From positions 1 through 64,000 of the IMG/VR virus record IMGVR_UViG_3300019132_000012: a DNA stretch of 64,000 nt; one strand, 5' to 3'. How positions within the stretch are numbered: position 1 is the first letter of the stretch; the number at the start of each line of letters is the position of its first letter. This DNA is from a virus. The notes beneath the pieces are model-generated. The model saw only the letters and a program-made list of their open reading frames with translations. It was not told the origin of the DNA and ran no database searches. The position numbers were made by a program, and so were the translations under genes. This document shows positions 5,091 through 61,157 of this stretch, in pieces.

Positions 5091-5148
5091 TTTGCATTTC
5101 GATTAGCGGTCTATTTGCATTCAAGCAATCGTTAAGTTGCAATCAAGG
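5091..5148 (-). promoter_or_regulatory. Intergenic motif cluster; candidate promoter TTGCTT-N17-TAATCG in gene sense
   Basis: Plus strand tttgcatttc..ctatttgcattcaagcaatc..ttgcaatcaagg. Gene sense reads CCTTGATTGCA..TTGCTTGAATGCAAAT..AAATGCAAAGGAG. Confidence 0.5.
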
Positions 5149-5607
5149 GTCCAGGAACGACAGGCGCGGCAGACTGACGCCCCGGTCGTTCACCACGATC
5201 TTCTCGTCGCGAGGATCGGGTGTAGTGCGGCTCCGGTGCTCCATCATGGCGATGTAGGCACGGCGCTCCACGGACTTGCGCTGCCGTTCGCGCAGATCGC
5301 GCTGTCTCGCCCGCTCGGATTTCTCTTCGGGAGACATGCGCTTCGGAACGCGAACCGGCATCGTCTTCTGCGGCAGCGGGGAGGGTGGCGTTGGTGGCCG
5401 GTCCTGTTTCCGTTTCGTGGTACGGCCCTCAGAGCGGAAGCGTTCCCAGTGGAGCTTCTGATTGCTGATGGGCAGCTTCAATCCTTTGCAGGCACGACTG
5501 ACCGAGGCTTTGCTCTTGCCGAGCCTCTCGCCGATCATCTCGTAGGTGCCGAAGCCCTCCAGGTAGAGGCGGCGGGCCTCGGCAAACCAATCAGGATCTT
5601 GCTTCAT
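5143..5607 (-). CDS. HTH-containing DNA-binding protein (154 aa)
   Basis: N-terminus RRLYLEGFGTYEMIGERLGKSKASVSRACKGL looks like a sigma-region-4/resolvase-type HTH. Basic C-terminus. Confidence 0.55.
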   Translation of the reverse strand: MKQDPDWFAEARRLYLEGFGTYEMIGERLGKSKASVSRACKGLKLPISNQKLHWERFRSEGRTTKRKQDRPPTPPSPLPQKTMPVRVPKRMSPEEKSERARQRDLRERQRKSVERRAYIAMMEHRSRTTPDPRDEKIVVNDRGVSLPRLSFLDP

Positions 5608-6091
5608 TGCCGTCGTCTACTTCGACTGATTGAATCAATCGCACAAACTCCACGACTTCTTCGTGAGACCGTGTGTGCTTCATGCGGTTGATTGCGTTGC
5701 ACACGAACTGAACGTTGCCGGGTATGTATCCGATGCTGCTGTCGATCCTATCGAGTGATGGTGCGGCCATCGACCTTACCGTGCTGCGTGACATGTCGAA
5801 CTTCACGCCTGTGTAGGCACAGCGCCCTTCTTGCTTGACCCATAGGTCTTGCAGGTACTCGTCAGTGAGATCAAAACCGACCTTCTTTCCGTTGGTATTC
5901 CTTCGACTATCGCCGAGCAGCTTCCGAACGTAGATCTTGGCCGGAATTTCAGCCTTCGAGCGACGCTTGTTCGCGCAAGTGATTGAGCAGCATTGCTCAT
6001 GTGGAGAGAGGCGCGTCTTTCGGCGCACCTCTGCTTCACGACGCTCAAAGTTTTCGCCGCAATGAGCGCAACGTAACTTGATCGTCTTCAA
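5591..6091 (-). CDS. HNH-family (DRID-type) endonuclease-like protein with N-terminal Cys cluster
   Basis: CAHCG...CCSITC then SLDRIDSSIGYIPGNVQFVCNAINRMK, typical of phage HNH_3-like nucleases. TTG start after GAGG. Visibly lower GC. Confidence 0.6.
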   Translation of the reverse strand: MKTIKLRCAHCGENFERREAEVRRKTRLSPHEQCCSITCANKRRSKAEIPAKIYVRKLLGDSRRNTNGKKVGFDLTDEYLQDLWVKQEGRCAYTGVKFDMSRSTVRSMAAPSLDRIDSSIGYIPGNVQFVCNAINRMKHTRSHEEVVEFVRLIQSVEVDDGNEARS

Positions 6092-6100
6092 AGTAAAACC

Positions 6101-6616
6101 TCACTGGTTTACGGTGATAACGAGCGGCTCAGTACGCAACCTCAGAGGTTTATCACTATAGAGATATTTCCCATTCCACTGCCGGTACTCACCGTTGCTG
6201 TTCCAGTAGAAGATGTATTCGCCTGACGAGCCGTGCGTGCCTTCGTCGGACGGTGCCGGAACCGCGACGTAGGTGTCGGCGAGACTCGGTCCCTGATTGA
6301 ATTTTTTGATCTGGATCGGATCGGTGAGGCGCTTCGAGCCCGAGGTGATCTTGCCTTTCACGCCCTCGTACATGATCGGCTGACCGGCCTCGTTCATGAG
6401 CAGGATAAAGCCGATCATCCCCGGCTTCGAGGTCAGCTCGATGCGGTTCTTGATGTTGTCGATCTCGGCGTTATCCGTGAAGGTGATCGAGTTGGCGGCA
6501 GCGCGGGCCTTCTCGGCCTGCACGTTCTTCGCAGGCTGAGCGGCGGGCTGGCTATTGCAAGCAGCGACCGCCAGCATCAAGGGGAGAGCGAGGAGAGTGA
6601 GAAACTTCTTCATCAT
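6101..6616 (-). CDS. Lipoprotein, unknown function (171 aa)
   Basis: MMKKFLTLLALPLMLAVAAC is a signal peptide plus lipobox. Lower GC. Confidence 0.7.
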   Translation of the reverse strand: MMKKFLTLLALPLMLAVAACNSQPAAQPAKNVQAEKARAAANSITFTDNAEIDNIKNRIELTSKPGMIGFILLMNEAGQPIMYEGVKGKITSGSKRLTDPIQIKKFNQGPSLADTYVAVPAPSDEGTHGSSGEYIFYWNSNGEYRQWNGKYLYSDKPLRLRTEPLVITVNQ

Positions 6617-6619
6617 GTG

Positions 6620-7039
6620 TTACTCGCAGATGGCCGGTTCGAGATAGGACGGAGACTCGCCTTGGAAGATCGACTTGTTCATCTTCTCGGCATTGGCGTT
6701 GTACTTGCCGACGAGATCGCGACAGCCTTGCTGGATCGCCGACAGCTCGATGCGGAGCCGCGATTTTTCGGCCGCGTCTGTGGTGTCGGCCAGGATCTTC
6801 TTGTGACCGGCGATCTGGGCGACGCGGGCCTTCACCTGGTTGTGGGCGTCCTTGAAGAACTCGTAAGACGCGATCACGCTGTCGGTCTCCATCGTCTTGG
6901 AGATGACACGGCCTGGCGCGGTCGCGACGGATGTGAGGGTCATGAGCGAGCTGCCGACGAACCCGAGGATCGCGACGCCGATCAGGATCGCGATGCCGAG
7001 GCCGACGATTTTCCAGAAATCTTTCACTTGGTCCTCCAT
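6620..7039 (-). CDS. N-terminally membrane-anchored protein, weakly LemA-like (139 aa)
   Basis: One TM helix (IVGLGIAILIGVAILGFVGSSL). C-terminal LVGKYNANAEKMNKSIF is reminiscent of the LemA YN..N..FP segment, a weak match. Confidence 0.6.
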   Translation of the reverse strand: MEDQVKDFWKIVGLGIAILIGVAILGFVGSSLMTLTSVATAPGRVISKTMETDSVIASYEFFKDAHNQVKARVAQIAGHKKILADTTDAAEKSRLRIELSAIQQGCRDLVGKYNANAEKMNKSIFQGESPSYLEPAICE

Positions 7040-7066
7040 TAGAACGGCCGCCCAGCAGGACGACCG

Positions 7067-7111
7067 ATTTGCATTTGCCTTATCATGTCATTTGAATTCA
7101 TGCAATCAAGG
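7067..7111 (-). promoter_or_regulatory. Intergenic motif cluster; candidate promoter TTGCAT-N17-TAAGGC in gene sense
   Basis: atttgcatttgcc..atttgaattcatgcaatcaagg. Shares CCTTGATTGCA and AAATGCAAA boxes with the 5091-5148 cluster. Confidence 0.5.
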
Positions 7112-7250
7112 ATTTAAGGTCGATAGCAACCGCCACGACCAGCGCCAGGGCGGCCGGGACGATCAGCCAGGCCCAGCCAGGTTCATCCGCCGAGATGCGG
7201 GCCGCCATGACACCCAGGAGGGCGCCGCTTGCCAGATACAGCGCACCCAT
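7098..7250 (-). CDS. Small hydrophobic protein (50 aa), translationally coupled
   Basis: MGALYLASGALLGVMAARISADEPGWAWLIVPAALALVVAVAIDLKSLIA. ATG overlaps the mazG stop (TGATG). Two predicted TM segments. Below the track cutoff. Confidence 0.4.
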   Translation of the reverse strand: MGALYLASGALLGVMAARISADEPGWAWLIVPAALALVVAVAIDLKSLIA

Positions 7251-13419: not shown

Positions 13420-13465
13420 TGACTAATTGAATTCGTGCAAATGGTCAAGCGAGATCATGCAAATT
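13412..13465 (-). promoter_or_regulatory. Intergenic motif cluster
   Basis: atttgcat..aattgaattcgtgcaaatgg..atgcaaatt. The HNH start codon lies inside ATGCAAATGG. Confidence 0.45.
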
Positions 13466-16519: not shown

Positions 16520-16542
16520 CACTGTCTCCGTTTGTTTGTTTA

Positions 16543-16557
16543 GCTTGAATTCGTGCC
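16543..16557 (-). promoter_or_regulatory. Motif copy
   Basis: gcttgaattcgtgcc, about 20 nt upstream of the exonuclease start. Confidence 0.4.
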
Positions 16558-16684
16558 AACATCAAGAGAAAAGGCGCCCCGAAGGACGCCTTTTTCCCGT
16601 TCACCCGCGAACACTCACATTCCGATGCTACGCTGCACACCCGTGGCCCATCCCGAGGGCCTCATCGGAAGAGAATTGTCCTTT

Positions 16685-16723
16685 AGCATTTGCATTTGCG
16701 CCTGTCAAGCGCAATGCAAACGG
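16685..16723 (-). promoter_or_regulatory. Motif cluster
   Basis: agcatttgcatttgcgcctgtcaagcgcaatgcaaacgg (ATTTGC x2 plus inverted ATGCAAA). Confidence 0.4.
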
Positions 16724-19719: not shown

Positions 19720-19736
19720 GATGTTCTCTCTTTCGG

Positions 19737-19755
19737 TTTGAATTCATGCAAATGG
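19737..19755 (-). promoter_or_regulatory. Motif copy
   Basis: tttgaattcatgcaaatgg; gene sense CCATTTGCATGAATTCAAA. Confidence 0.45.
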
Positions 19756-20380: not shown

Positions 20381-20422
20381 CATTTGCAGTTCCATAGCAC
20401 ATCCGTTTGCATTCAAGCAAGC
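20381..20422 (-). promoter_or_regulatory. Motif cluster upstream of ssb
   Basis: catttgcag...gtttgcattcaagcaagc. Confidence 0.45.
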
Positions 20423-22972: not shown

Positions 22973-23015
22973 TTCAGGTTCCTGCGGGTGGCGGGATTTC
23001 GAGGGGGGGTGGACA

Positions 23016-23035
23016 TTAGCTTGAATTCAAGCTAA
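23016..23035. promoter_or_regulatory. Perfect 20-bp palindrome in the divergent intergenic region (motif family)
   Basis: TTAGCTTGAATTCAAGCTAA, between the replication operon (-) and ruvC (+). Confidence 0.55.
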
Positions 23036-23086
23036 GAGTCAACCAACTAGATCTAGGGCCCCGGAGGGCCGGGAGACACAAGACGC

Positions 23087-23768: not shown

Positions 23769-24110
23769 CTAGGTCGGCTGGATCCGGTCGACCACAGGGC
23801 TCCAGTATTCCTTGTACATCGGGATGGCTAGATCTCGATTGATCCGGTGGCGCCGGAAGAGAATTTCAACAGCGGCCAAAGCAGAGTTACAATAAATCAC
23901 AGCAAGACTCTCATCATCGCCGATGATCTGGTCGAGGTTGTTCAGAATGTCCGACGTGACCGACTCGGCGTTTCTGTGAGCATGGCTCTGATGTTCTTGG
24001 TTCATGACGCTTTCTGCTTTCATCTGACTGATACTCTCCGAGTTTGGCGATAGACCCAAAGTCCTATCGACCATAACCCAATGAGAACAAAAAGAGAACG
24101 GTTTTTCCAT
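23769..24110 (-). CDS. Hypothetical protein, low GC (start uncertain)
   Basis: AT-rich ORF divergent from the repressor. Alternative starts at MKAESV and MNQEHQ. Confidence 0.4.
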   Translation of the reverse strand: MEKPFSFCSHWVMVDRTLGLSPNSESISQMKAESVMNQEHQSHAHRNAESVTSDILNNLDQIIGDDESLAVIYCNSALAAVEILFRRHRINRDLAIPMYKEYWSPVVDRIQPT

Positions 24111-24233
24111 TTGCAATCGCGCAAAAACTGAATTAGTTGTGGTCAAGTTATCGGAACGGAACAAAATCCGGTTCGCCCTGGGAACTCGTTTGTATTTGCA
24201 TGGTTATGATGACGGTTAGTGCAAACGCAAATT
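24111..24233. promoter_or_regulatory. Immunity-region operator/promoter cluster (three motif-like sites)
   Basis: ttgcaatcgcgcaa (TTGC-N6-GCAA), tatttgcatgg and gtgcaaacgcaaatt, between divergent genes. Confidence 0.5.
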
Positions 24234-24315
24234 CGGCAATCTCGTACCCCTGTGGCCGTCCAGCGAGACCGCAGGCAGGACGATTATGCCAAGTGCTCAA
24301 GGGAATGGAGGAGTT

Positions 24316-25050
24316 ATGCTTACAATGATCGAACAAAAGGGCCGGGAGGCATCAGTGACGGAAAGTCCTCGTGATGTAGTTGTTGAGTGGCTGCAGCACA
24401 TTATGAAGGTAAAGGACTGGACCGGAACAGATATTGCTCGAAAGTCAGATCTAGCGCCGTCGACTGTTCTACGAATACTGAACGATCCGCAACACAAGTT
24501 CGTTCCGGCTCTGAAGACACTTCAGAAAATTGCCACGGGTACCGGCTACCCGATCCCCCGCAAGGTCACCGACGCGCTTGGAGCACCGAGCATCTCGACC
24601 GGGGAGGGTAAGGAATTCGCAGGACGCACCTTGGCTCGGGAAATCTCACCCCCACCAGCCGCGCCACGCCGGAGCCCGATGGTCGAAGTCAAGCATGTGT
24701 CATCGCTGCCGTCGTCGCTGCAGCCCATCGACAAGCGGGAGATCCATGTCGCCGCGCTGCCGCATTGGGAAGGCGACGACACCGCGTTTGCCTTCTACAT
24801 GCCGGATAATGCGCTGGATCCGTGGGCACCGGCCGGTACCCTGATGTACGCCACCAAGCGCCGCGATCCGGTCGGCGGCGACTGGGTGCTGGTGATCGAC
24901 CAGGCCGGGAAGTCACGGGTGCGCTTGTTGCTGAGCATCGATGAGAAGGGCCTGTCTCTCTCGAAGAGCCATCCGGCAACCGAAGACGAGAAGATGACCT
25001 TCGATGAGATCAAGGAACTGGCCATCGTCGGCGCTGTCATGCGAATCTAA
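24316..25050 (+). CDS. CI-like repressor: N-terminal XRE HTH plus C-terminal S24/LexA-like domain without the Ser/Lys dyad
   Basis: WTGTDIARKSDLAPSTVLRILN is the HTH. The C-terminal FAFYMPDNALDPWAPAGTLMYATKRRDPVGGDWVLV aligns to V-GDSM-P..GD.v.v with Ser replaced by Ala, and the Lys position reads SRVRLL. ATG follows GGAGGAG. Confidence 0.75.
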   Translation: MLTMIEQKGREASVTESPRDVVVEWLQHIMKVKDWTGTDIARKSDLAPSTVLRILNDPQHKFVPALKTLQKIATGTGYPIPRKVTDALGAPSISTGEGKEFAGRTLAREISPPPAAPRRSPMVEVKHVSSLPSSLQPIDKREIHVAALPHWEGDDTAFAFYMPDNALDPWAPAGTLMYATKRRDPVGGDWVLVIDQAGKSRVRLLLSIDEKGLSLSKSHPATEDEKMTFDEIKELAIVGAVMRI

Positions 25051-25103: not shown

Positions 25104-25132
25104 GTCCGCAATAACTAGAAAAGGTTTGAGTG

Positions 25133-25540
25133 ATGGCTCAGCGAGTTGAGCGCGGAGTGCCTGTTGTGCCGATCCGCAACCTGTCACGGTTGCCGAATAA
25201 CCTCTCAGCCCAGACCGAGGCCACGACACGGTGCCCCTTCCCACTGATCGACGACGAGACAGCCTTCGCCTTCTACATCCCCGAGGAATATGTCGGATTG
25301 CACAAGGACGCCCTGGCCTTCGCCAGCCAGCGACGGGATCCGATCCCCAACGACCTGGTGCTGTTCGAGCTGAAGGATGGCGAGCGCAGGTTCCGATGCG
25401 TCTATGAGGTAAAGAGTGATGGGTATGTCACGATAAGACCTTTGAAGTTTCCTTTGAAATCAGCGAAGATCGAGAAAGAAACCATCAAGTTTCATGAGAT
25501 TGACCAGATGAGTGTGGTCATGCTGGTCGTAAAGACCTGA
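25133..25540 (+). CDS. Stand-alone paralogue of the repressor C-terminal (S24-like) domain, no HTH
   Basis: DDETAFAFYIPEEYVGLHKDALAFASQRRDPIPNDLVLF aligns with DDTAFAFYMPDNALDPWAPAGTLMYATKRRDPVGGDWVLV of the repressor. Lower GC. Confidence 0.65.
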   Translation: MAQRVERGVPVVPIRNLSRLPNNLSAQTEATTRCPFPLIDDETAFAFYIPEEYVGLHKDALAFASQRRDPIPNDLVLFELKDGERRFRCVYEVKSDGYVTIRPLKFPLKSAKIEKETIKFHEIDQMSVVMLVVKT

Positions 25541-26168: not shown

Positions 26169-26177
26169 GGTACCTCC

Positions 26178-26208
26178 ATTTGCATTCATGCAAATTTTGC
26201 GCTACATG
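26178..26208. promoter_or_regulatory. Inverted octamer ATTTGCAT-TC-ATGCAAAT overlapping candidate promoter TTGCAT-N17-TACATG
   Basis: Sits between the divergent HD hydrolase and T5orf172 genes. The -10-like hexamer ends 6 nt before the ATG at 26215. Confidence 0.5.
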
Positions 26209-26214
26209 TAGGGC

Positions 26215-26691
26215 ATGTCAGATGCCAACACCCAACATGTCTGTGGTATGCCGTGGTTCGAGGCCCGTCAGGAGATCGACCTCTTCCGCGAACTTGAATA
26301 CGCCTGTGTCTATGCGCTTGGACCCGCAGAGGGGGCACCTCTGCGGATCGGGATGACCGCCGACCCCCGGCGCGAGCTGGGGATCCTGCAAGCCGAGAAC
26401 TGGCAGGATCTCATCGCCCACGAGATCGTCTGGACGGCGGGGAAGCCGCTGGCGCGACGGCTCAAGGCCGAAGTCCACCGGCTCCTGGACGGAGAGGGGC
26501 GGCGCATCCGCGCCGACTGGTTCCGTCTCGAACGGGATGAGGCGTGGCCGCTGATCAAGACGGCCGCCGCCACCCTCAAGATCCCGACCTTCTCTCACCA
26601 GGAGATGATGCGCCGGGTCCGCTCACTGCGGGAGGATCGGATCGCCCAGGCCCTGGCGTCCGCAGGGTTCTCGCATTTGCATTCGCATTGA
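26215..26691 (+). CDS. GIY-YIG-like T5orf172/MUG113-domain protein
   Basis: CVYALGPAEGAPLRIGMTADPRRE...AEVHRLL...ADWFRL follows the T5orf172 pattern. Confidence 0.55.
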   Translation: MSDANTQHVCGMPWFEARQEIDLFRELEYACVYALGPAEGAPLRIGMTADPRRELGILQAENWQDLIAHEIVWTAGKPLARRLKAEVHRLLDGEGRRIRADWFRLERDEAWPLIKTAAATLKIPTFSHQEMMRRVRSLREDRIAQALASAGFSHLHSH

Positions 26692-26709: not shown

Positions 26710-27126
26710 CTACTCCCTCTGCAAGGATGACCAGACTGGAACCACATTGTTCCGCCTGATGAACGTGTTCTCCAGGGCCTTCTGGAGATCGTTCAGAAAG
26801 TCAATCGACACGGTCGTCGTGTCGGCTTGAAATTCATCCTTCAGCCGTTTCAGCTTCGACAGCCACTCCTTGGCCATCTCGGCTTGACCGGGAGGCAGTT
26901 TTGTCTCCCATTCACTCTTGTCGACTTCGAGCTGTGCTTTCTTGATCTCGAAGTCGAGGTAGTCGTGCAGTTCCTGGATCCTGACCTTGACGCTCTCCAG
27001 GATCGGCTCGGCTTGAGAAAGAGCCGCACAGATCTCTTCGATGATCTCGGGCAGCTGTTCCTGAAACCGGGGATTGATCTCGGGTAGCGACGGCTTAGGC
27101 GGAACCCTTGTCGTCGTTGGCACCAT
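26710..27126 (-). CDS. Hypothetical protein (138 aa), low GC
   Basis: ORF predicted helical/coiled-coil from composition. Confidence 0.55.
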   Translation of the reverse strand: MVPTTTRVPPKPSLPEINPRFQEQLPEIIEEICAALSQAEPILESVKVRIQELHDYLDFEIKKAQLEVDKSEWETKLPPGQAEMAKEWLSKLKRLKDEFQADTTTVSIDFLNDLQKALENTFIRRNNVVPVWSSLQRE

Positions 27127-27379
27127 CCTCCTCCTTCCTGTTCACGGCGGAATGGTCCTCCTCCTGCGGCTTCCAGGGGGCGAGGCCGCGTTCGAGCGCC
27201 GACAGGGCCAGCGCCACGATGCGGCTGCAGCCGCGCTTCTCGTACTTCAGGACGGCGGCATCGCTGATGCCGAGCCAGTCGCCGACCTCCTTCTGGGTCA
27301 GCTCCCGGCTGATCCGCCAGAGCCGGAACTCGTCACCGGACAGAAACGGTTCCTGCTCTCTCGAAGCACGTTCTTCCAT
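27095..27379 (-). CDS. Cro/CI-type (XRE) HTH regulator (94 aa)
   Basis: LTQKEVGDWLGISDAAVLKYEKRG. Internal start MEERASRE. Confidence 0.7.
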   Translation of the reverse strand: MEERASREQEPFLSGDEFRLWRISRELTQKEVGDWLGISDAAVLKYEKRGCSRIVALALSALERGLAPWKPQEEDHSAVNRKEEDGANDDKGSA

Positions 27380-27487
27380 GGTCGCCCCTCTTCTCCCTGA
27401 CCGGGGATGCTCAAAGCCTTCACTTGTCATGATCAATGCGTTCCGTTCGCGCCGTGGAGCTGAGTTAAGGTTAGTCATTGATCGGGT

Positions 27488-27530
27488 CAAGCAAAATTTG
27501 CATTTGCGATAACGATTCCATTTGCATTTT
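27488..27530 (-). promoter_or_regulatory. Two ATGCAAAT octamers upstream of candidate promoter TTGACC-N17-TAACTC (gene sense)
   Basis: caagcaaaatttgcatttgcg...ccatttgcatttt. Confidence 0.5.
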
Positions 27531-28844: not shown

Positions 28845-29143
28845 TACGCGGCCTCGCAGGTTGGAAGAGGACGGGTGTTGACACCGCAAAGAGGGCACCA
28901 CTTCGCCTTGCCGCCCCAGTTCTTGAGCTTGCGCTCGAAGGTCCGGTCGGCGCCGGGGATGAAGTGGGCCAGTTCCACCTTGCGACCGGCCGCGACCGCC
29001 GCCTTGACCAGGGGGTTGGCCCTGTGGCCGCCCGACAGGTGCTCCTGCACCCGTCTCGATGGATCGTCGTCTTCGGTGTAGCCGAGGTAGTGCCTGGCAT
29101 GGCCGAAGGGCTTGTCGAAATGCAAAAGGTAGACACCGCTCAT
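28844..29143 (-). CDS. GIY-YIG-superfamily small nuclease-like protein (99 aa)
   Basis: VYLLHFDKPFGHARHYLGYT..RVQEH...ERKLKNWGG...CPLC follows a pattern common in actinophage and proteobacterial GIY-YIG-like proteins. Confidence 0.55.
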   Translation of the reverse strand: MSGVYLLHFDKPFGHARHYLGYTEDDDPSRRVQEHLSGGHRANPLVKAAVAAGRKVELAHFIPGADRTFERKLKNWGGKAKWCPLCGVNTRPLPTCEAA

Positions 29144-29161
29144 TTGAATTCACGCAAAAGG
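29142..29161 (-). promoter_or_regulatory. Motif copy
   Basis: atttgaattcacgcaaaagg, immediately upstream of the GIY-YIG-like gene. Confidence 0.45.
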
Positions 29162-31208: not shown

Positions 31209-31251
31209 CCATTTGCTTCCTTGTTAAGTTAGCATTTGAATTCAAGCAAAC
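31209..31251 (-). promoter_or_regulatory. Motif cluster
   Basis: ccatttgcttcc...agcatttgaattcaagcaaac; overlaps the stop codon of the upstream gene. Confidence 0.45.
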
Positions 31252-31994
31252 ACTTTTTCAAAGTGCTTGGCGCCGTTGCCGTGGACCTCGATAGTGATGT
31301 TGGCCTTGAAGCCACGCTTGAGGCCGTTGCAGAGCATGCACTGGGTGCATTGAACGGCCTTGCCCAGCTCCTTGGACGCGGGGCACTTGCCCTCGCCCTT
31401 GAGCACCGGCTCGCCCTTGCGCCTGACGCGGTAGGTGCGCCAGCCGAGCGCCACGGCCTCGGCGTATTCCTCGTCGGAGCTGACCGAGGCCATGCACCAT
31501 TGCTTCAAGGCCGGGATGGTCCGCCAGAAGGTGGTGTAGCCGACCGGATCGGCTTTCGCGAGGATCGTCTCCCAGACGAGGATCGGGACCGCGCCGGGAT
31601 CGCCGTAGGCGCCGATCCGCACCTTGCGGCCAGCGAGCAGCCGTCTGGCGACCGACAGCGGCACATCCTGGTAAGCATCCCCGCGCCTGAAGGCCTGGTA
31701 GACCGTGTGCGGGCCGTTCATGAGGACGACGTAGCAGGTGCGCTCCTCGTTCTTGAGGTTGCCGGTCTTCTCGTCCCTGACCACCTTGCCACGATGCTTG
31801 CAGTTGCCGCAGATGGCGTAGTCAGACCCGTTCTGGTTCGCCTCGAACGGGTGCATGTCGGAGCGCATGATGTAGATCTGGGGCATTGGCCCGGTCTTCG
31901 AGTTCTTGCCGCCGCTCATCAGGCCTGAGACGATCACGACAATCGGGGAGCCGTCGACCTCGGACGGCCCTCTGTAGATGATCATTCCTTGCAT
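31242..31994 (-). CDS. Hypothetical Cys-rich protein (250 aa)
   Basis: Long ORF. CGNCKHRG and CTQCMLC clusters suggest metal binding. Confidence 0.65.
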   Translation of the reverse strand: MQGMIIYRGPSEVDGSPIVVIVSGLMSGGKNSKTGPMPQIYIMRSDMHPFEANQNGSDYAICGNCKHRGKVVRDEKTGNLKNEERTCYVVLMNGPHTVYQAFRRGDAYQDVPLSVARRLLAGRKVRIGAYGDPGAVPILVWETILAKADPVGYTTFWRTIPALKQWCMASVSSDEEYAEAVALGWRTYRVRRKGEPVLKGEGKCPASKELGKAVQCTQCMLCNGLKRGFKANITIEVHGNGAKHFEKVFA

Positions 31995-32006
31995 TCATCC
32001 TTCCTT

Positions 32007-32026
32007 TCTCGAATTCGTGCAAAGGG
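32007..32026 (-). promoter_or_regulatory. Motif copy
   Basis: tctcgaattcgtgcaaaggg. Confidence 0.45.
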
Positions 32027-34412: not shown

Positions 34413-34422
34413 GCAATTCTCC

Positions 34423-34440
34423 TTTGCATTCAAGCAAGCG
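34423..34440 (-). promoter_or_regulatory. Motif copy fused to the RBS
   Basis: tttgcattcaagcaagcg; gene sense CGCTTGCTTGAATGCAAAGGAG. Preceded in gene sense by hairpin gagggcg-ataa-cgccctc at 34453-34470. Confidence 0.45.
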
Positions 34441-37982: not shown

Positions 37983-37996
37983 GGGTCAGATCCTTT

Positions 37997-38015
37997 CTTT
38001 GAATTCGTGCAAACG
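37997..38015 (-). promoter_or_regulatory. Motif copy
   Basis: ctttgaattcgtgcaaacg, upstream of the GHKL ATPase gene. Confidence 0.45.
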
Positions 38016-40041: not shown

Positions 40042-40050
40042 GTTCACTCC

Positions 40051-40077
40051 TTTGCATTTGCTTTTGCATTCAAGCGC
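40051..40077 (-). promoter_or_regulatory. Motif cluster
   Basis: tttgcatttgcttttgcattcaagcgc. Confidence 0.45.
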
Positions 40078-40078
40078 A

Positions 40079-40363
40079 TCAATGCGCAAGCGAAAACTCC
40101 GGGAACTCCTTCACGAGGAAGTGCATGGTGGGCTCCCAGAGGGGATTGTCTTTGGCCCATTCGACACGCCAGGAGCGGTAATCCTCGCCGCGTGAGCCGC
40201 CGCGCTGGATTACGGTGCCGCAGTCTTCCCCTTCTTTGTGGAAGTAGTGGTCGACCGCGTTCCGTTGCGGGTAGCCTTTGGTCGGCCCGGTCGTGCCGAG
40301 ATAGACGCAGGTTTGGCAATCGTGCTCGTAGACGGGGCCGGTGTCTTCTTCGCAGTGGACCAT
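40079..40363 (-). CDS. Hypothetical protein (94 aa)
   Basis: ORF with normal composition. Confidence 0.55.
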   Translation of the reverse strand: MVHCEEDTGPVYEHDCQTCVYLGTTGPTKGYPQRNAVDHYFHKEGEDCGTVIQRGGSRGEDYRSWRVEWAKDNPLWEPTMHFLVKEFPEFSLAH

Positions 40364-42911: not shown

Positions 42912-42931
42912 CCATTTGCATTCATGCAACC
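42912..42931 (-). promoter_or_regulatory. Motif copy overlapping the 3' end of the flavin reductase gene
   Basis: ccatttgcattcatgcaacc. Confidence 0.4.
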
Positions 42932-46511: not shown

Positions 46512-46530
46512 CGCTTGCATTCAAGCGAAT
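46512..46530 (-). promoter_or_regulatory. Motif copy
   Basis: cgcttgcattcaagcgaat. Confidence 0.45.
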
Positions 46531-47369: not shown

Positions 47370-47400
47370 GATTTGCATTGGTTAAGTTGAATTCAAGCGC
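47370..47400 (-). promoter_or_regulatory. Motif cluster
   Basis: gatttgcattggttaagttgaattcaagcgc. Confidence 0.45.
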
Positions 47401-47526
47401 ATGGCAAGACAAATCTCCACCATACGGGGGAGCGGCAGACCCATGCTTGTGGATGGGAAAGGGTGACCAGCCCTTCGTTTCCGCCGCTCTCCGGTATGGG
47501 ATCGGCGAGACCTTGACGACCTCGCC

Positions 47527-49735: not shown

Positions 49736-49781
49736 TGAAAACCCTCCATGCCGCCCAACATGACTGCTGGGCGGTGAGGAA
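49736..49781 (-). terminator. Rho-independent terminator, copy 1 of a duplicated element
   Basis: Gene sense CCTCACCGCCCA-N10-TGGGCGGCATGGAGG then GUUUU; starts at the stop codon of 49785..50579. Confidence 0.6.
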
Positions 49782-49784
49782 AGC

Positions 49785-50579
49785 TCACAATGCTTGGAGA
49801 ACCGGCTTGGTCTCGGCGATGACCTGGACGATCTTGGCCTGATCCCAGGATTCGAGGAGGGCCTTGCCGTAGCTGAAGGCTTCCGACTTCGGATCCACGA
49901 CGTCCCAGCCCTTCTGGAACTGGTGCGAGATATTCCAGTTGCTGTCGCCATCATCGCGGTAGATGACGAGGTAGACCGGCGACTTCTCCGACTGCGGATG
50001 GACGGGGCGGTTCTGATACTGTTCGTGACCGGCCGCGATCAGGCCCTCGACATAGTCCTTGGCCTCTTTCAGACCCATGCCATAGGCTTCGCGGGCAGTC
50101 TTGATCGCCTCGATGAGCTGGCCGGTGTGGATCTGCACCCGGATCTTGTTGGCGTATTCCAGATGCTTCCGACTCGCCTCCGTGCGGGCCTCGGCGACGA
50201 GCGCGTCCCGGACCTCTTGCGGGATGAGCGGACGTTTGGCGAGATGATCCTCGACCGCATTCTTGGCGTCGATCAGGCTGGCGCCGGTCAGGGTGCGGTA
50301 GTGCTTGATCGTCTCGATCTTACGGTCGCCCGCAATCGCAGTCGCGATCAGGGCATCGACGGTCTCACGATTGCTCTGCCTGAACTCCTCGACGCCGATG
50401 TTCTTGCCGTGCCGGACATTGTGGTCATCGCGGTCGCGGATTGCGTCGACGGCGCGACCACGAACACCATCATCGATCATGTTTTCGATGGTGCTAATGA
50501 AGGAGCTGGCCTCGACAAGACTGGGATTGGCCAGCTTGGCATCAGATTCGACGGCGGCGGAAGAAGTCATCATACCCAT
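49785..50579 (-). CDS. Protein with two ribosomal L7/L12 C-terminal-domain-like modules (264 aa)
   Basis: KIETIKHYRTLTGASLIDAKNAVE and IEAIKTAREAYGMGLKEAKDYVE, compared with the bL12 CTD [24 protein letters not shown]. Start MGMMTSS after AAGGAG. Confidence 0.65.
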   Translation of the reverse strand: MGMMTSSAAVESDAKLANPSLVEASSFISTIENMIDDGVRGRAVDAIRDRDDHNVRHGKNIGVEEFRQSNRETVDALIATAIAGDRKIETIKHYRTLTGASLIDAKNAVEDHLAKRPLIPQEVRDALVAEARTEASRKHLEYANKIRVQIHTGQLIEAIKTAREAYGMGLKEAKDYVEGLIAAGHEQYQNRPVHPQSEKSPVYLVIYRDDGDSNWNISHQFQKGWDVVDPKSEAFSYGKALLESWDQAKIVQVIAETKPVLQAL

Positions 50580-50606: not shown

Positions 50607-50654
50607 AGGAAAAGCCCTCAATGCCGCCCACCAGTGACGATGGGCGGTGAGGAA
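50607..50654 (-). terminator. Rho-independent terminator, copy 2 of the duplicated element
   Basis: Gene sense CCTCACCGCCCA-N10-TGGGCGGCATTGAGG then GCUUUUCC; starts at the stop codon of the ProQ-like gene. Confidence 0.6.
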
Positions 50655-50657
50655 GGC

Positions 50658-51002
50658 TCAGGCGGCTTGCTTGAGAGGCTCGCGGCGCTTGCGCTTCTGC
50701 TCGCTCATGGCCCGTAACCGCTCTTTGGCGTGGTCGGCCTGTTCCGGCGTCACGATCCCGGCCGGATGGCCGTCGATGCCGTAGCGGTACTGACCGGCGA
50801 CGAGCGTCTTCAGGTAGAGCGGACCGCTGGTGTAGTTGTGCAGCGCGGACCGGATGCGCTTGCGGGAGATATCCGGCATCAGCCGGAACAGCTCCTTGTC
50901 GATGCCGATGGCGAGCGGGATCTTGAGCCTGCCCTTGCCCATGAAGAGATTCGGGAAGCGCTCGACCAGGAGGCGTCTGACGACTTCGCTGTCGTGTTCC
51001 AT
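50658..51002 (-). CDS. ProQ/FinO-domain RNA-binding protein (114 aa)
   Basis: LVERFPNLF...PLAIGIDKELF...SRKRIRSALHNYTSGPLYLKTLVAGQYRYGIDGHPAGIVTPEQADHAKERL follows the ProQ/FinO N-terminal domain pattern. Confidence 0.65.
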   Translation of the reverse strand: MEHDSEVVRRLLVERFPNLFMGKGRLKIPLAIGIDKELFRLMPDISRKRIRSALHNYTSGPLYLKTLVAGQYRYGIDGHPAGIVTPEQADHAKERLRAMSEQKRKRREPLKQAA

Positions 51003-51045
51003 TTGCATTTGCTCCTTTCAGCAGCAGCGGCGTTTGAATTCGTGC
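50999..51045 (-). promoter_or_regulatory. Motif cluster
   Basis: ccatttgcatttgc...gtttgaattcgtgc. Confidence 0.45.
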
Positions 51046-51413
51046 TCACGGCGACGCATGGCGAAGCCGATCATGACGATGGTATAGAGGCTCGCGGCCC
51101 CGGCCCCAACGCCGGACAGGATGGCGCCGAGGAAGACGTAGCACACAAGGTTGATGGCGGTGAGCAGGCCGCCGAGAACGATCCATTCCTCCAGGCCGGT
51201 GAGCTGCTGGATCCATCCCTTGCGCTCGGGCCAGTAGAGGAACAGCTCGATGGCCGCGATCCAGGGCCACAACAGGACGGCTGTGAGGATCGTCAGGACG
51301 TTGACGAGCCGGTCGTATCGCGGATTCCAGACGTATCCGTCCTGCTGAATGAACCAATACAGGCACAGGCCGCCGCAGCCGAGATAAAGCAGGAAGTAAC
51401 TCAGGATTTCCAT
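51018..51413 (-). CDS. Membrane protein (131 aa, about 4 TM)
   Basis: Internal start MEILSYFLLYLGCGGL. Confidence 0.55.
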   Translation of the reverse strand: MEILSYFLLYLGCGGLCLYWFIQQDGYVWNPRYDRLVNVLTILTAVLLWPWIAAIELFLYWPERKGWIQQLTGLEEWIVLGGLLTAINLVCYVFLGAILSGVGAGAASLYTIVMIGFAMRRREHEFKRRCC

Positions 51414-52615: not shown

Positions 52616-52656
52616 GGCGCGGCCTCCGAATCTCGATCAAACGGATCTCACGCTTT

Positions 52657-52674
52657 TCGCTTGAATTCAAGCGA
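52657..52674. promoter_or_regulatory. Perfect 18-bp palindrome (motif family)
   Basis: TCGCTTGAATTCAAGCGA. Confidence 0.5.
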
Positions 52675-52856
52675 AGATTTGCGCGAAAGTTGTGGAACGA
52701 GGTCATACCGAAGCCGACGACCATGGCGATGAAGACAGCCGTGACGACGGCCAGGCACACAGGACCGAGCATGAAAACACTCCAACGATGCAGGGAAAAG
52801 GGAAGCGGTAAGCGCTTCGGGCTGCCCACCGGAGCCGATGGGCAGAGGCGAAGGGC

Positions 52857-53000
52857 TCAGTCCTCCTCGGCCGCGACCGCCACGAGCTGGGCGCGGGGGA
52901 GGTTGTGATAGAAGGCGACCTGGACCCTGGCCTTGTATGCCGACGAGGCAATCACCTCGTCGATCAGGGTTCCGAAGCGGGTGATCTTCCAGAGGCGCAC
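52857..53000 (-). CDS. Small protein (47 aa, GTG start)
   Basis: (V)RLWKITRFGTLIDEVIASSAYKARVQVAFYHNLPRAQLVAVAAEED; GGAGGA upstream. Confidence 0.35.
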   Translation of the reverse strand: MRLWKITRFGTLIDEVIASSAYKARVQVAFYHNLPRAQLVAVAAEED

Positions 53001-54371: not shown

Positions 54372-54490
54372 GGTCAGGGCTCCAGAAAATGGTTCGGAAA
54401 ATCCCCGGAAAATCGAAAATAAATCTCCGAGGGGCGGAATTTCAGGTTTGCATCGGGCGCAAGAATCCCTCCGCGAACGGGGCGGATCGC

Positions 54491-54519
54491 TTGCATTCAA
54501 GCAAATTCTGTGCTATAAG
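54491..54519 (+). promoter_or_regulatory. Sigma70-like promoter TTGCAT-N17-TATAAG facing a gene-free stretch; overlaps a motif copy oriented for the minus strand
   Basis: cgcTTGCATtcaagcaaattctgtgcTATAAGtgg. Confidence 0.55.
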
Positions 54520-54525
54520 TGGTGC

Positions 54526-54890
54526 TTCAAACGAAGGCCCCGTTCAGTCCGTATGAGGGACGCGGGGCCGCTCTCCCAGCTCCCCGACAGAGGGTAGAAG
54601 CACAAGGGAGAAACCCAAGCAGAACAACAGGTTCAGCCGGAACAGGAGAGACAGCGGATCCGGGGCCGCTGGACACTCTCCCCATCACCCATAAGGGAAA
54701 GATCCCATAAGGGATGACAGGGAAGAGACAGACAGCCGGATAGCGGAATAGGCCGGATCCCCGATAGGCGGGAATAGAGGGAAAAGGCTGTCCAACGCCT
54801 ACTTTCGCCGCCTAAAAAGGCAAATTCCCGAATATCAGGGGCCGGGAAACACCTATTATAGGTTGCAAGGATCGATCCGAGTGGCCTCAG
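54526..54890 (+). ncRNA. Candidate non-coding transcript / protein-binding region, purine-rich, no credible ORF
   Basis: Strong A+G bias on the plus strand (acaagggagaaacccaagcagaacaacagg, cataagggaaagatcccataagggatgacagggaagagacagacag). Only junk-like short ORFs. A promoter lies directly upstream. Confidence 0.3.
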
Positions 54891-54921
54891 AACCGGGGTT
54901 TATACCACCCAACGGTTGAAA

Positions 54922-56475: not shown

Positions 56476-56680
56476 GGTCTCAATCCTCTATCTGTGCCCT
56501 GTCAGGGCGTTGCTGGGTTGGGGAGGCTTCCCGGCAAGGCCGGGAAAAACCGACCCATTGGGCAGCCTTCCCCGTTCTCCGAGGAGGTTCCTCCCGGAGT
56601 CCGCCTCCCCGCGCGGGGAGGCTTGAAGGCTTGCTACGAAACAAGGTAGCTATGGCGTAATGCAATCGCTGCATGACGTT
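56476..56680 (-). promoter_or_regulatory. Highly structured 5' leader (four consecutive hairpins)
   Basis: Gene sense GCCUCCCCGC/GCGGGGAGGC, CCGGGAGGAACCUCCUCGG, UCCCGGCCUUGCCGGGA, GCCCUGACAGGGC. Confidence 0.45.
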
Positions 56681-56720
56681 CCATCACGTTACGCGCGTGC
56701 TGGCATTTGCACAAACGTTC

Positions 56721-56734
56721 CTGACAATTGTCAG
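56721..56734. promoter_or_regulatory. Perfect 14-bp palindrome
   Basis: CTGACAATTGTCAG. Confidence 0.4.
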
Positions 56735-56758
56735 TTAGTCTTTAGTCGTAGAAGTTAA

Positions 56759-56787
56759 GCGTTTGAATTCAAACAAGAATTTGCTTG
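56759..56787. promoter_or_regulatory. Motif copy (palindromic form) plus half-site
   Basis: gcgtttgaattcaaac..aatttgcttg. Confidence 0.45.
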
Positions 56788-56915
56788 TTGAGTCCGTTGC
56801 CCAACGATATCAGAAAGCAACAATGCTACGAGAATTCCTTGGATGTTGTTGCTTTGCGCGCGCTTGCGTACTAAACCATTGACATCATTGCGGAATTTAT
56901 GAGCATTTTCGCCCT

Positions 56916-56997
56916 AGTAAAGCACAAGTAAAACTCTTCCAATGCTTTGCAACCTTGCTTGTCGCGCCCAAGTAAAACCAATTCTCACCAAGTAAAC
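56916..56997 (+). repeat. Four direct copies of (C)AAGTAAA(A)C in an AT-rich spacer
   Basis: tagtaaagc, caagtaaaac, ccaagtaaaacc, ccaagtaaac. Confidence 0.5.
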
Positions 56998-57221
56998 AAA
57001 AGACTTGACAGGGGAATTACACGGAAGAATCAGAGCGAACATTACACGAATATTTTTTATTGCGACATGCCCCGCCATGTTGGGGGCCCCATACCCATAC
57101 CATAAACCCGCAAAAGGCCCTTTTACACATGGGCAACGGGGTCTGTGCCTCGATGAAGACTGTCAGGCGCAGGATCAGCGGCCCGCGATGCACGCCTCCG
57201 GGCACCTGTCAAGCCCGTGAC

Positions 57222-57256
57222 TTGACATTTTGTCGCGTGTTTGCTTGAATGCAAAC
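57222..57256 (+). promoter_or_regulatory. Candidate rightward promoter TTGACA-N17-TTGAAT overlapping inverted repeat GTTTGC-TTGAAT-GCAAAC
   Basis: cTTGACAttttgtcgcgtgtttgcTTGAATgcaaac, 20 nt upstream of the AAGGAG-ATG at 57276. Confidence 0.5.
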
Positions 57257-57275
57257 GGCAACAAGGAGCCTCTGC

Positions 57276-59109: not shown

Positions 59110-59111
59110 CC

Positions 59112-59937: not shown

Positions 59938-60242
59938 ACATCGTGGTCGCGGATTCGCGCAAGCACGCGGAGGCGGTGATCCGGTGGATGAAGCTCGATC
60001 CCGAAGACTGGGTGCCCTATGCCTACGGCGACACGCTCCAGGGCGTGTACGGCTTCGCCAAGATCGTGCGGCCCCTGGAGGGCGTCACGGAGGCGCATTT
60101 CGACTGGATCCTGGAGCAGCTCGTACCCCGCGTGGTCCACGACACCCATCCGGTCCCCATGAGCTGGAAGCTCGACAGTCCAGAACCGGTCCACGACGAG
60201 ATCAGGACGGGCCTGACCGACAACCCGATCTGGGGGTATTGA
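59934..60242 (+). CDS. Hypothetical protein (102 aa)
   Basis: ORF; ATGA coupling. Confidence 0.55.
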   Translation: MNIVVADSRKHAEAVIRWMKLDPEDWVPYAYGDTLQGVYGFAKIVRPLEGVTEAHFDWILEQLVPRVVHDTHPVPMSWKLDSPEPVHDEIRTGLTDNPIWGY

Positions 60243-60250
60243 CACGTTTG

Positions 60251-60290
60251 CCGATTTGCATTAAAACAAATGGCAGAATGCAAATAGTCT
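60251..60290 (+). promoter_or_regulatory. Motif pair TTGCAT-N16-ATGCAA
   Basis: ccgatttgcattaaaacaaatggcagaatgcaaatagtct. Confidence 0.4.
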
Positions 60291-60294
60291 GATT

Positions 60295-60790
60295 CAAAAG
60301 ATCATCGGATGATGTAACAGGGAGTGGTCCGCTGGAGAGCGTCGATCAACCGTCTGCCATCTCCGACCAGCGCCTGCAGGGGCTTTCCTCCTTTCACCCT
60401 GCAGGCGCCCCATTACTTGCGGCCCATGGTTCTGGGCGAAGCGCATAACCGCGCCTAGCCTCCCCAGGTGTCCGTCTTCGCGGTGCCCGCCGACTGTCAC
60501 CTAACGACATAGGGGTGGCGGGTTAAATGAGGCCATGCGTCAAGCCGCGAGCCACAATGAGACCGATGGCGACGTGAGAACCATCTACGATCTCCGTAGA
60601 CGCGGAGGGTCTCCTCATCTGTGCCCCGACCTCGTCCTCTGTCCTTACATGCACGCTGCCGTGCCTTGGACATGCCGCTCGGGCCTCCGTTCCTCCGGTC
60701 GGCAGTTGCCGGAAGGGATCGCGGGAGGGCGCTGGAGCCGACCAGCAGGGGAGGGGCTTGCAATCCCATCGGCACCAATTCATCAAGGAG
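60295..60790 (+). ncRNA. Roughly 500-nt GC-rich gene-free stretch with extended hairpins; candidate structured RNA or decayed gene
   Basis: No ORF with a normal start or composition in any frame. Perfect 12-bp hairpin gcgcctgcaggg-N15-ccctgcaggcgc (60371-60409). Others include atcatc-gg-gatgat, ctacg-atctc-cgtag and gatgg-N12-ccatc. Confidence 0.3.
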
Positions 60791-60795
60791 ACGTC

Positions 60796-61098
60796 ATGCA
60801 GCCGGTCGCCATCGCCCAGGATCGCTCGATCTCCGTGCCGCCTGGGCACATCGTCAAGACCGGCTACGTCCACGTCGACCAGGTCAAGATGGCCTGCCGC
60901 GAGCGCATGGCCATCGGCGACGTCAACACCGCCTACCAGAAGCGCCTGCAACTCGGCGAGAACCAGTCCTGGCCGCCGCCGCGTGGCCACTGGGAGGGCG
61001 AACGCTTCGTCGTCGAGGACGGCCGTCACGAGTATCTGGCGACCCTCATGTTGGGCCATCAGTACCTCTTCGTCGCCTGGCTTGAACTGGCCGCCTGA
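60796..61098 (+). CDS. ParB/sulfiredoxin-like nuclease-domain protein (100 aa)
   Basis: GERFVVEDGRHEYLATLMLG resembles the ParB-N DGxHR motif. AAGGAG lies 6 nt upstream. Confidence 0.45.
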   Translation: MQPVAIAQDRSISVPPGHIVKTGYVHVDQVKMACRERMAIGDVNTAYQKRLQLGENQSWPPPRGHWEGERFVVEDGRHEYLATLMLGHQYLFVAWLELAA

Positions 61099-61101
61099 CG
61101 T

Positions 61102-61130
61102 TTGCATTTGAGCGAACATTCTGCTATGCC
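61102..61130 (+). promoter_or_regulatory. Candidate promoter TTGCAT-N17-TATGCC
   Basis: gtTTGCATttgagcgaacattctgcTATGCCgtttgcag. Confidence 0.45.
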
Positions 61131-61157
61131 GTTTGCAGAAAATCAAACGGAGCAATC

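Follow-up and report, generated by a model that had tools for sequence, protein, structure and literature searches.

A dispersed near-palindromic motif in a Bradyrhizobium phage family as a candidate set of repressor operators

Among the described phage systems, the stoperators of L5 and its Cluster A relatives come closest to the element considered here, a near-palindromic motif of about 19 bp that recurs between the genes of a virus genome segment of 64,000 nucleotides (IMG/VR record IMGVR_UViG_3300019132_000012, positions 1 to 64,000; the whole segment is referred to as the window). Cluster A-type repressors are described as terminating elongation at numerous dispersed binding sites (PMC9283540), the same logic is presented for L5 (PMC6550527), and the stoperators reported so far are those of actinobacteriophages, in which the repressor is monomeric. 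As in the L5/Cluster A (gp71) system, the window motif occurs in tens of copies in short intergenic gaps and in one orientation relative to transcription, and some of its copies lie over promoters, as one or a few L5 sites lie over early promoters, the others being promoter-less in both systems. Unlike L5, whose 13-bp asymmetric site is bound by a monomeric two-domain repressor, the window phage presents a near-palindrome of about 19 bp and a candidate repressor of the λ/186 CI type; moreover, promoters of three registers incorporate at least 42 of 98 copies, the host belongs to the Alphaproteobacteria, and a roadblock role is proposed by analogy. Since the site is near-palindromic (perfectly so at 23016 and 52656) and the candidate repressor is CI-like, the motif system falls outside the gp71 class.

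Phage P1 is a large temperate myovirus in which many early operons are each placed under the C1 repressor by scattered, promoter-overlapping operators, about 15-20 asymmetric 17-mers (ATTGCTCTAATAAATTT) bound by monomeric C1. The proposed organization of the window phage is similar, with one repressor and operators dispersed over the genome and overlapping early promoters, but the P1 operator sequence is unrelated to the motif, which is near-palindromic. Coliphage 186 CI and λ CI combine a helix-turn-helix (HTH) domain with an oligomerizing C-terminal domain, and 186 CI, which makes use of additional flanking sites and whose induction depends on a LexA-controlled gene instead of self-cleavage, is the best structural match of the candidate. 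The window immunity region likewise carries a conserved LexA-type box, and the catalytic-serine position of its repressor is not conserved. In contrast to 186 and λ, which have a handful of operators at one switch region, about 30 sites are spread across this genome. A dispersed regulatory site is a known kind of phage element, and the near-palindromic form, the triple promoter use and the likely CI-type reader are new details.

The motif and its distribution

The window derives from a Bradyrhizobium phage of about 110 kb with a temperate genome of more than 100 kb. Its nearest annotated relative is Bradyrhizobium phage BDU-MI-1 (121,342 bp; host B. diazoefficiens USDA110), which is syntenic with the window, shares a primase of 58.6% identity and carries myovirus-type tail genes. 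A near-identity DNA search with 20 kb against annotated phages gave no match, BDU-MI-1 having surfaced by the protein-level search. In the searchable literature, nothing relevant was found on an analysis of BDU-MI-1 or on the motif string, in agreement with the statement of a preceding sequence-only reading of the window that no equivalent had been described for such phages.

Enrichment was counted in phage DNA, that is, in the window and in phage or prophage relatives. Within the window, ATGCAAAT had 19 matches (1.0 expected) and TTGAATTCAA had 16 with at most one mismatch (0.8 expected), and the most over-represented 8-mer was AATGCAAA, with 26 occurrences vs 0.6 expected, so that the motif words exceeded expectation 15-40 times. 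The motif family perceived in the sequence-only reading is therefore real, and almost entirely intergenic. In the sense of the genes its consensus is g-y-TTGC-w-TGAAT-(G/T)-CAAA-y-r; pooling of the 77 G-type copies of the window and its relatives gave g-y-T-T-G-C-w-T-G-A-A-T-G-C-A-A-A-y-r. The arms TTTGC and GCAAA form an inverted repeat with one helical turn between them, and the central wTGAAT is asymmetric and as conserved as the arms. In the window phage a T is allowed at the G position, which creates GAATTC and perfect palindromes. Lone half-sites (ATGCAAA or TTTGCAT) were also found, in tandems and inverted pairs.

The placement of the motif was also strongly non-random. GAAT(G/T)CAA occurs at 29 window loci, 18 of which lie in the non-coding fraction of about 8% (P = 3e-13) under a crude and deliberately over-inclusive gene model. 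For BDU-MI-1 the test was made with its GenBank annotation, which is independent of the window gene calls, and 28 of the 29 GAATGCAA copies were intergenic in a genome that is 13.3% intergenic (P = 7e-24). The top 8-mer of this phage is likewise AATGCAAA (30 vs 0.85 expected), 25 of the 29 copies are co-oriented with genes, and 19 of the 29 lie within 60 nt upstream of a same-strand coding sequence start. The asymmetric, G-type copies of the window were all oriented with the local genes (14/14), and the common polarity proposed for them was thus borne out in both phages. The coordinates proposed for the palindromes (23016 and 52656), the inverted repeats (26178 and 57239) and 17 asymmetric copies were all recovered, as were the tandem ATTTGCATTTGC sites, the junctions of ATGCAAAGGAG with a Shine-Dalgarno sequence at 5091, 34423 and 40051, and three TTGCAT-N17-TAnnnn frames.

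Two earlier generalizations had to be narrowed. Nearly every gap had been said to carry the motif, which is an overstatement: about two-thirds of the true intergenic gaps do. The remaining third lie mostly at 44-56 kb, and hairpins take the place of the motif at 44432, 49314, 49649, 50580, 52773, 53444, 53698 and 55366. The description as genome-wide was likewise too broad; in the fully sequenced BDU-MI-1, the 45-kb late structural block contains 2 of the 29 copies, one of them in front of the capsid gene, and because of this near absence the motif is regarded as a feature of the early and middle regions. A second repeat family occupies gaps that have no copy of the main motif; in the minus sense, at about 49745-49787, 50618-50660 and 52820-52859, a conserved hairpin, TGAGCCTTCCTCACCGCCCA...TGGGCGGCAT, comes after a stop codon.

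The motif was found at orthologous positions in at least 10 genomes whose proteins are only 45-60% identical, including a prophage in the 9.1-Mb chromosome of B. japonicum. Other carriers were a B. hipponense contig, another Bradyrhizobium contig, a Methylobacteriaceae metagenome-assembled genome and a 108-kb metagenome contig. For example, the site between the primase gene and that of the single-stranded DNA-binding protein (SSB) is kept in all these genomes, the neighbouring spacer having diverged. Six IMG/VR relatives with primases 57-62% identical carry the motif in the gene sense, and it was absent from relatives with a primase identity of 42% or less; distant relatives carry other repeats, but these genomes are too remote to serve in a covariation test. 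In a search of 185,579 genomes with the exact 17-mer, most of the matches among those listed appeared to be chance occurrences, with clusters in Bradyrhizobium and Methylobacteriaceae contigs. Two Methylobacterium contigs (L049, 1867-1883; L051, 3278-3294) each hold a single exact copy in a context conserved between both, adjoining in L049 an open reading frame (ORF) for a relaxase-like protein of 1282 residues and a small HTH ORF; these copies may represent chance or an unrelated use of the same word.

The choice between G and T at the variable position followed the distribution of GAATTC, which is absent from the 121-kb BDU-MI-1 genome (about 16 copies expected from base composition). It is missing from BDU-MI-1 (L001-L003), L006-L008, L039, L168 and L169 and tolerated in the window phage and L004/L005, which are the only ones with the G-to-T variant and its perfect palindromes. 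BDU-MI-1 and most relatives lack GAATTC and therefore have only the G form of the motif. This absence suggests restriction avoidance.

Promoter registers and the candidate repressor

The RpoD promoters of B. japonicum follow the consensus TTG-N16-18-TATA and include a form with a GC-extended –10, GCTATA; in this species 192 of the transcription start sites are leaderless (PMC4842269). The 98 motif copies were scanned for TTGNNN-N16-18-TAnnnn, with offsets counted from the G of GAAT as zero. The pattern was concentrated in three discrete registers, which account for 42 of the 98 sites, 56 having no such pattern; other offsets gave 9 hits altogether, or about 0.07 hits each. Many of the 98 copies are orthologous, and the independent loci number about 10 for the first register (a), 7 for the second (b) and 1 for the third (c). 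A scan for E. coli-type sigma-70 promoters yielded no hit at the motif and a total below that of shuffles, this consensus being uninformative for the host; because of this deficit, the motif-linked promoters are the only recurrent promoter candidates.

In register a (23 sites) the –35 hexamer starts at –6, and the TTGCNT of the motif is itself the –35 hexamer. TA peaked exactly 17 bp after TTGCNT, at 14 of 69 sites vs about 2 at other offsets, often preceded by GC, and the GC-extended –10 (GCTA) of many sites matches the B. japonicum RpoD variant. The following window copies of this register are on the minus strand. GATTGCTTGAATGCAAATA (5112..5130) supplies TTGCTT, with TAATCG 17 bp downstream, and the half-element ATGCAAAGGAG (5091..5101), fused to a Shine-Dalgarno sequence, lies at the predicted transcription start of that promoter. 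The copy at 7089..7107 forms TTGCAT-N17-TAAGGC and is followed by the tandem GCAAATGCAAAT, and the one at 31233..31251 forms TTGCTT-N17-TAACAA. The site upstream of the SSB gene (20404..20422) is orthologous in 10 genomes, with TTGCnT-N17-TAATGC in the relatives.

The –35 hexamer of register b (13 sites) begins at –14 or –13; a TTGAC-type hexamer lies just upstream, the spacer is taken up by the motif, and GCAAA is followed directly by the –10 hexamer. In one orthologous group the ATG is exactly 6 nt past the –10 hexamer in 7 of 7 genomes, and the same geometry was found in the window at 13420..13448 (minus strand), where ATTTGCACGAATTCAATTA (13424-13442) occupies the spacer of TTGACC-N17-TAGTCA and the ATG at 13413 lies 6 nt past the –10. 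Similarly, the near-perfect 18-bp palindrome ATTTGCAT-GA-ATGCAAAT at 26177..26195 yields on the plus strand TTGCAT-N17-TACATG, with identical leaderless spacing for the ATG at 26215, and on the minus strand abuts the Shine-Dalgarno sequence of an HD-domain gene. Several register-b sites are thus predicted to give leaderless mRNAs. Further minus-strand members are GTTGGCACGAATTCAAGCT (16542..16560; TTGATG-N17-TAAACA), which directly follows an intrinsic terminator upstream of the RecE-like gene, and the copy at 47384..47402, in the spacer of TTGCCA-N17-TAACCA. The perfect palindrome TTAGCTTGAATTCAAGCTAA (23015..23036) separates the divergent replication-initiator (22972, minus) and RuvC-like (23087, plus) genes and takes register b in TTGACT-N18-TAATGT of the former. 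Register c, in which the –35 hexamer starts at –32 and the motif spans –10 to about +8, comprises six orthologues and L169 and corresponds to TTGACC-N17-TATTTG of the RuvC-like gene.

Many of the 56 promoter-less copies fill the whole gap from a stop codon to the next Shine-Dalgarno sequence, of which the last motif bases often form the 5′ part (GCAAAGGAG or GCAAGGAG). Promoter-less copies on the minus strand of the window are the following: ACTTGCGCGAATTCAAAAG (4412..4430), within the 3′ end of the upstream ORF and 11 nt upstream of the ATG at 4400; ATTTGCATGAATTCAAACC (19735..19753), after a terminator-like hairpin and 18 nt upstream of an ATG; TTTTGCGTGAATTCAAATG (29141..29159), whose final bases are the start codon at 29143; GCTTGCTTGAATGCAAAGG (34421..34439), fused to the Shine-Dalgarno sequence; the copy upstream of the rIIA-like gene (37996..38014); a copy followed by the tandem GCAAATGCAAAGGAG, itself fused to the Shine-Dalgarno sequence (40047..40079); GGTTGCATGAATGCAAATG (42913..42931); and ATTCGCTTGAATGCAAGCG (46512..46530).

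The motif is accordingly regarded as an operator instead of a promoter element, because it is placed over core promoters in varied registers and also occurs where there is no promoter. Among the three readings proposed from the sequence, a dispersed, stoperator-like operator set fits best: the copies are many, intergenic and in a single orientation, some lie over promoters (23 + 13 + 6) and 56 have none, variants occur in the repressor region, and the recognition helix of the candidate repressor is invariant. A set of operators for the phage's own CI-type repressor is, by a modest balance of probability, the best explanation of the motif. One phage-encoded regulator, most likely the CI-like repressor, would bind the near-palindromic sites; bound at the –35 and upstream spacer, over the whole spacer or from –10 to +8, it would exclude RNA polymerase, and the promoter-less sense copies between stop codon and Shine-Dalgarno sequence would act as roadblocks to read-through transcription. 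In this manner about 30 operators could allow one repressor to silence a temperate genome of more than 100 kb with dozens of early promoters.

The best candidate reader is most likely the CI-like protein encoded at 24286..25050 (plus strand), in which an N-terminal HTH precedes a C-terminal domain of the LexA/λ-CI type. Orthologues occur in every family member at 49-58% identity, and the HTH segment is nearly invariant (W-GTDLAR ... LAPSTILRLLN); in the recognition helix, APST-LR--N, the residues A57, P58, S59, T60, L62, R63 and N66 were invariant over 26 homologues, down to 45% identity. Named homologues come only from Bradyrhizobium genomes. The homologues carry PF01381 or PF13443, and one carries PF00717, the Pfam HTH match of the window protein itself being below threshold; a PDB sequence search with the CI-like and Cro-like proteins gave nothing significant. 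An AlphaFold model (pLDDT 82.7) presented a five-helix N-terminal domain and a β-rich C-terminal domain, and its best PDB matches in a fold search were phage 186 CI (2fjr, E = 2e-4), a λ-186 hybrid repressor, λ CI and LexA, with TM-scores of 0.3-0.4, low because the domains are oriented differently.

The region upstream of this gene carries its own variants of the motif. At 24085..24139 (plus strand, directed at the CI-like gene), an alphaproteobacterial LexA-type box, GAAC-N7-GAAC (24085-24099), stands beside the variant motif CATTTGCAATCGCGCAAA (24106-24125), which supplies the –35 of TTGCAA-N17-TAGTTG. The TTGCAA-N17-TA arrangement, with a motif variant as the source of its –35, is kept in 7 of 7 genomes, and the LexA-type box is intact in 4 of 7, with one mismatch in two more. 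An inverted pair of half-site tandems, TTTGCGTTTGCA ... ATGCAAATACAAA, follows at 24189..24233. The LexA-type box, the likeness to 186 CI and the unconserved catalytic serine hint at a 186-style SOS control exerted via LexA and not by self-cleavage. A second candidate binder, the small Cro-like HTH protein (27095..27379, minus strand), possibly shares the same sites; the half-sites ATGCAAAT and GCAAATGCAAAT (27462..27528, minus strand) lie upstream of and overlap the –35 of TTGACC-N17-TAACTC (27490-27462), the promoter of its gene. The gene at 25130-25540 looks like a shortened version of the CI C-terminal domain. Compared with BDU-MI-1, the window has an insertion (25629-26691) placed between the CI-like gene and the Cro-like module and formed by the HD-domain gene and a divergent T5orf172-like gene, the latter with leaderless geometry.

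We infer that the CI-like protein would bind the motif, with repression or a block of elongation as the probable outcome, and several points weigh against this. The link between protein and motif is drawn from their co-occurrence and from the conserved recognition helix, and it offers no covariation to exploit, because neither helix nor motif varies within the family. The conserved asymmetric centre, wTGAAT, is unusual for a symmetric HTH dimer and is unexplained, as is the frequent degeneration of the left arm beside an almost invariant GAATGCAAA. The strong orientation bias is also unexplained and, with the tight fusion to the Shine-Dalgarno sequence, would suit a function at the RNA or translational level. 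Moreover, orthology shrinks the 98 sites to the few independent loci given above for each register.

If the operator reading is right, the operator word and the candidate repressor provide an experimental handle on the silencing and induction of a temperate phage of more than 100 kb. Should the promoter-less copies next to a Shine-Dalgarno sequence prove to be roadblocks, the principle of the stoperator would also apply in a proteobacterial phage whose CI is of the λ/186 type. A further product of the analysis is a set of about 15 well-defined host-type promoters, of which several are leaderless, with potential use in Bradyrhizobium genetics.

Alternative readings

The motif could instead be a positive promoter element, the site of a phage activator or sigma-like factor that steers host RNA polymerase to early and middle genes, comparable to the MotA box of T4, to the TTGC repeats of λ CII or to a self-contained promoter read by a phage-specific polymerase. 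The motif marks the 5′ ends of gene blocks, in sense orientation and only in the early and middle regions, canonical promoters are otherwise rare, and TTTGCTTGA resembles the T4 MotA box, TTTGCTTTA. Copies that directly follow terminator-like hairpins (window 16552 and 19745, L085 5324, and the capsid-gene site in BDU-MI-1, L096 and L162) would suit re-initiation, but such hairpins are no proof of it, because motif-less arrangements of a hairpin directly before a gene are common in the late region. An activator or sigma site needs a fixed register, which the motif, with placements at the –35, within the spacer and over –10/+1, does not have; where it is fused to a Shine-Dalgarno sequence, transcription from about 29 nt downstream would begin within the gene. 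Furthermore, comparison of about 50 window proteins with Pfam and PHROGs revealed neither an RNA polymerase nor a sigma-like protein, the small ORFs having been scanned only in part, and BDU-MI-1 has no unassigned ORF of polymerase size. The related proposal of a phage-specific promoter core, put forward in the sequence-only reading, was partly right: about a quarter of the sites use TTGCNT as their –35 hexamer, but the register is not fixed. A positive element is therefore considered unlikely.

Several narrower promoter models were rejected. A fixed promoter element with one register to the start was ruled out by the three placements, and a plain –35 element by the many copies that lie 0-25 nt from a start codon. 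An extended –10, sigma-54, RpoH or extracytoplasmic function (ECF)-type promoter was discarded on the positional profile, which lacks an A at –11, a GG at –24 and a downstream box in fixed position.

An element acting in the early mRNAs near the ribosome-binding site, as a hairpin or single-stranded tag, is a distinctly improbable explanation. It would be bound by a translational regulator like T4 RegA or by the ProQ/FinO-like protein of the phage, or would act as a signal for processing or stability, much like the start-associated sequences (SAS/ESAS) known from Cluster K mycobacteriophages. These also place a conserved word just upstream of many starts, merging with the ribosome-binding site and sometimes with an upstream inverted repeat, and the function of SAS is itself unknown (PMC3203893); their sequence is unrelated to the motif, however, and a large share of the copies here stand in promoter registers outside the transcript. 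The orientation is sense-only, the distance from motif to Shine-Dalgarno sequence is 0-3 nt at many sites, every motif-bearing gene has GCAAA within about 12 nt of its Shine-Dalgarno sequence, and a ProQ/FinO-domain protein is encoded at 50658-51008. The consensus RNA folds at –2 to –9 kcal/mol, which follows from its palindromic form alone. In the alignment, a 5-bp stem was paired in 82.1% of cells vs 82.8% in shuffles, arm changes were uncompensated, a 7-bp stem and an alternative register were no better, and covariation scores were not above shuffle means; in addition, the pair that closes the loop is lost in the G-to-T variant. A motif in register a or b precedes the predicted start, outside the predicted transcript, and therefore cannot act through the RNA of that promoter. 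Palindromic copies serve divergent genes, and late genes have a Shine-Dalgarno sequence without the motif. The stem-loop and ProQ-ligand proposal of the sequence-only reading was thus not supported, in view of the lack of covariation in three stem models and of the position of the motif in registers a and b.

A candidate small RNA of about 110 nt was noticed on the minus strand (about 16566-16675). Its promoter, TTGACA-N17-TAAAGG (16708-16680), holds AATGCAAATGC in the spacer, half-sites (TTTGCAT and AATGCAAATGC, 16680..16720, minus strand) flanking and filling it, and the predicted RNA ends at an intrinsic terminator, has a folding energy of –48.5 kcal/mol (z = –2.1) and may suit the ProQ/FinO-like protein better as a ligand than the motif does.

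Slightly less probable still is that the sites are read by a host regulator of the CRP/FNR type (FixK2/NnrR class), instead of or alongside a phage protein. The FixK2 box of B. diazoefficiens is TTGA/C-N6-T/GCAA (PMC6710368), and the window has 20 matches vs 3.3 expected, 16 of which are motif copies that fit the 14-bp consensus, with the G/T alternative exactly at the variable position; the hosts of the phage family are Bradyrhizobium. However, the match is only to a short degenerate palindrome pattern, and the centre of the box is variable, the centre of the motif being as conserved as its arms. The activating geometry, centred at –41.5 (class II activation), fits neither the genes led by a Shine-Dalgarno sequence nor the three registers, which put the box inside the core promoter, and no TA enrichment was found near +30. 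Family-specific conservation also favours a phage factor. If this reading were true, a widespread Bradyrhizobium prophage family would gate its early programme on the micro-oxic or symbiotic state of the host.

Very improbable, finally, is that the copies are mainly a by-product of cassette spread, that is, boundary repeats that aid the recombination of early modules and have little regulatory role, like the promoter-stem-loop cassettes of T4-type phages: copies do sit at block boundaries, and the inserted HD/T5orf172 block (25629-26691) brings its own copy at 26177, but orthologous copies stay intact while the flanking intergenic DNA has diverged, and the promoter registers are exact, with conserved leaderless spacing.

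Genomic setting and minor observations

The remaining window sites include the degenerate copies TTTGCACGAATTCGAG and ATGAATGCAAGGA (31986..32023, minus strand), directly upstream of the ATG at 31985, GTGAGCACGAATTCAAACG + AATGCAAATG (51001..51049, minus strand) at the start of the ProQ/FinO-like gene, the perfect palindrome TTCGCTTGAATTCAAGCGAA (52655..52676) and the inverted half-sites ATTTGCAT ... ATGCAAAT (60251..60286). On the plus strand, GTTTGCTTGAATGCAAACG (57239..57257) precedes the first gene of the block leading to the terminase genes, and a TTTGCAT half-site is the –35 of TTGCAT-N17-TATGCC (61097..61130) upstream of the thioredoxin gene. At 54488..54519, the plus-strand TTGCAT of the motif is the –35 of TTGCAT-N17-TATAAG, a strong host-type promoter directed into a 420-nt non-coding stretch without a convincing ORF (54491-54921, plus strand).

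The window has a G+C content of 61%, with minus-strand genes from 58 to about 56475 and plus-strand genes from 57263 on. The assignable products include an integrase, a thymidylate synthase with an HNH insert, a class II ribonucleotide reductase and a RecE-like exonuclease. Further window products are a primase/helicase, an O-like replication initiator, a RuvC-like resolvase, the CI-like and Cro-like HTH proteins, an rIIA-like protein and the ProQ/FinO-domain protein; thioredoxin and the small and large terminase subunits are encoded on the plus strand. No match to Rfam families and no tRNA were found within the window. The sequence-only reading had spoken of the window as a prophage. In its left part, the window shows identity to a metagenome contig of 108,979 bp in which further phage genes follow past the integrase, so that the window is a contig of a phage genome and shows no flanking host DNA. 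Prophage relatives are common in chromosomes of B. japonicum, B. diazoefficiens, B. ottawaense, B. hipponense and others, a group to which inoculant strains used in agriculture belong; one natural lysogen is the B. japonicum assembly GCA_025962555.1.

The frame of the thymidylate synthase (2333-4027, minus strand) contains an HNH-endonuclease-like segment at residues ~219-380, and the gene calls of another assembly split this region into DHFR and a ThyA of 466 residues. At 49785-50579 the minus strand encodes a phage protein whose C-terminal domain is of the ribosomal L7/L12 type (PF00542, E = 9e-14). Between the divergent blocks lies a non-coding stretch of 787 bp (56476-57262), which includes the palindromic GTTTGAATTCAAAC (56757..56778), AAGTAAAAC-type repeats at 56926 and 56970, and hairpins, and which may be an origin or control region.

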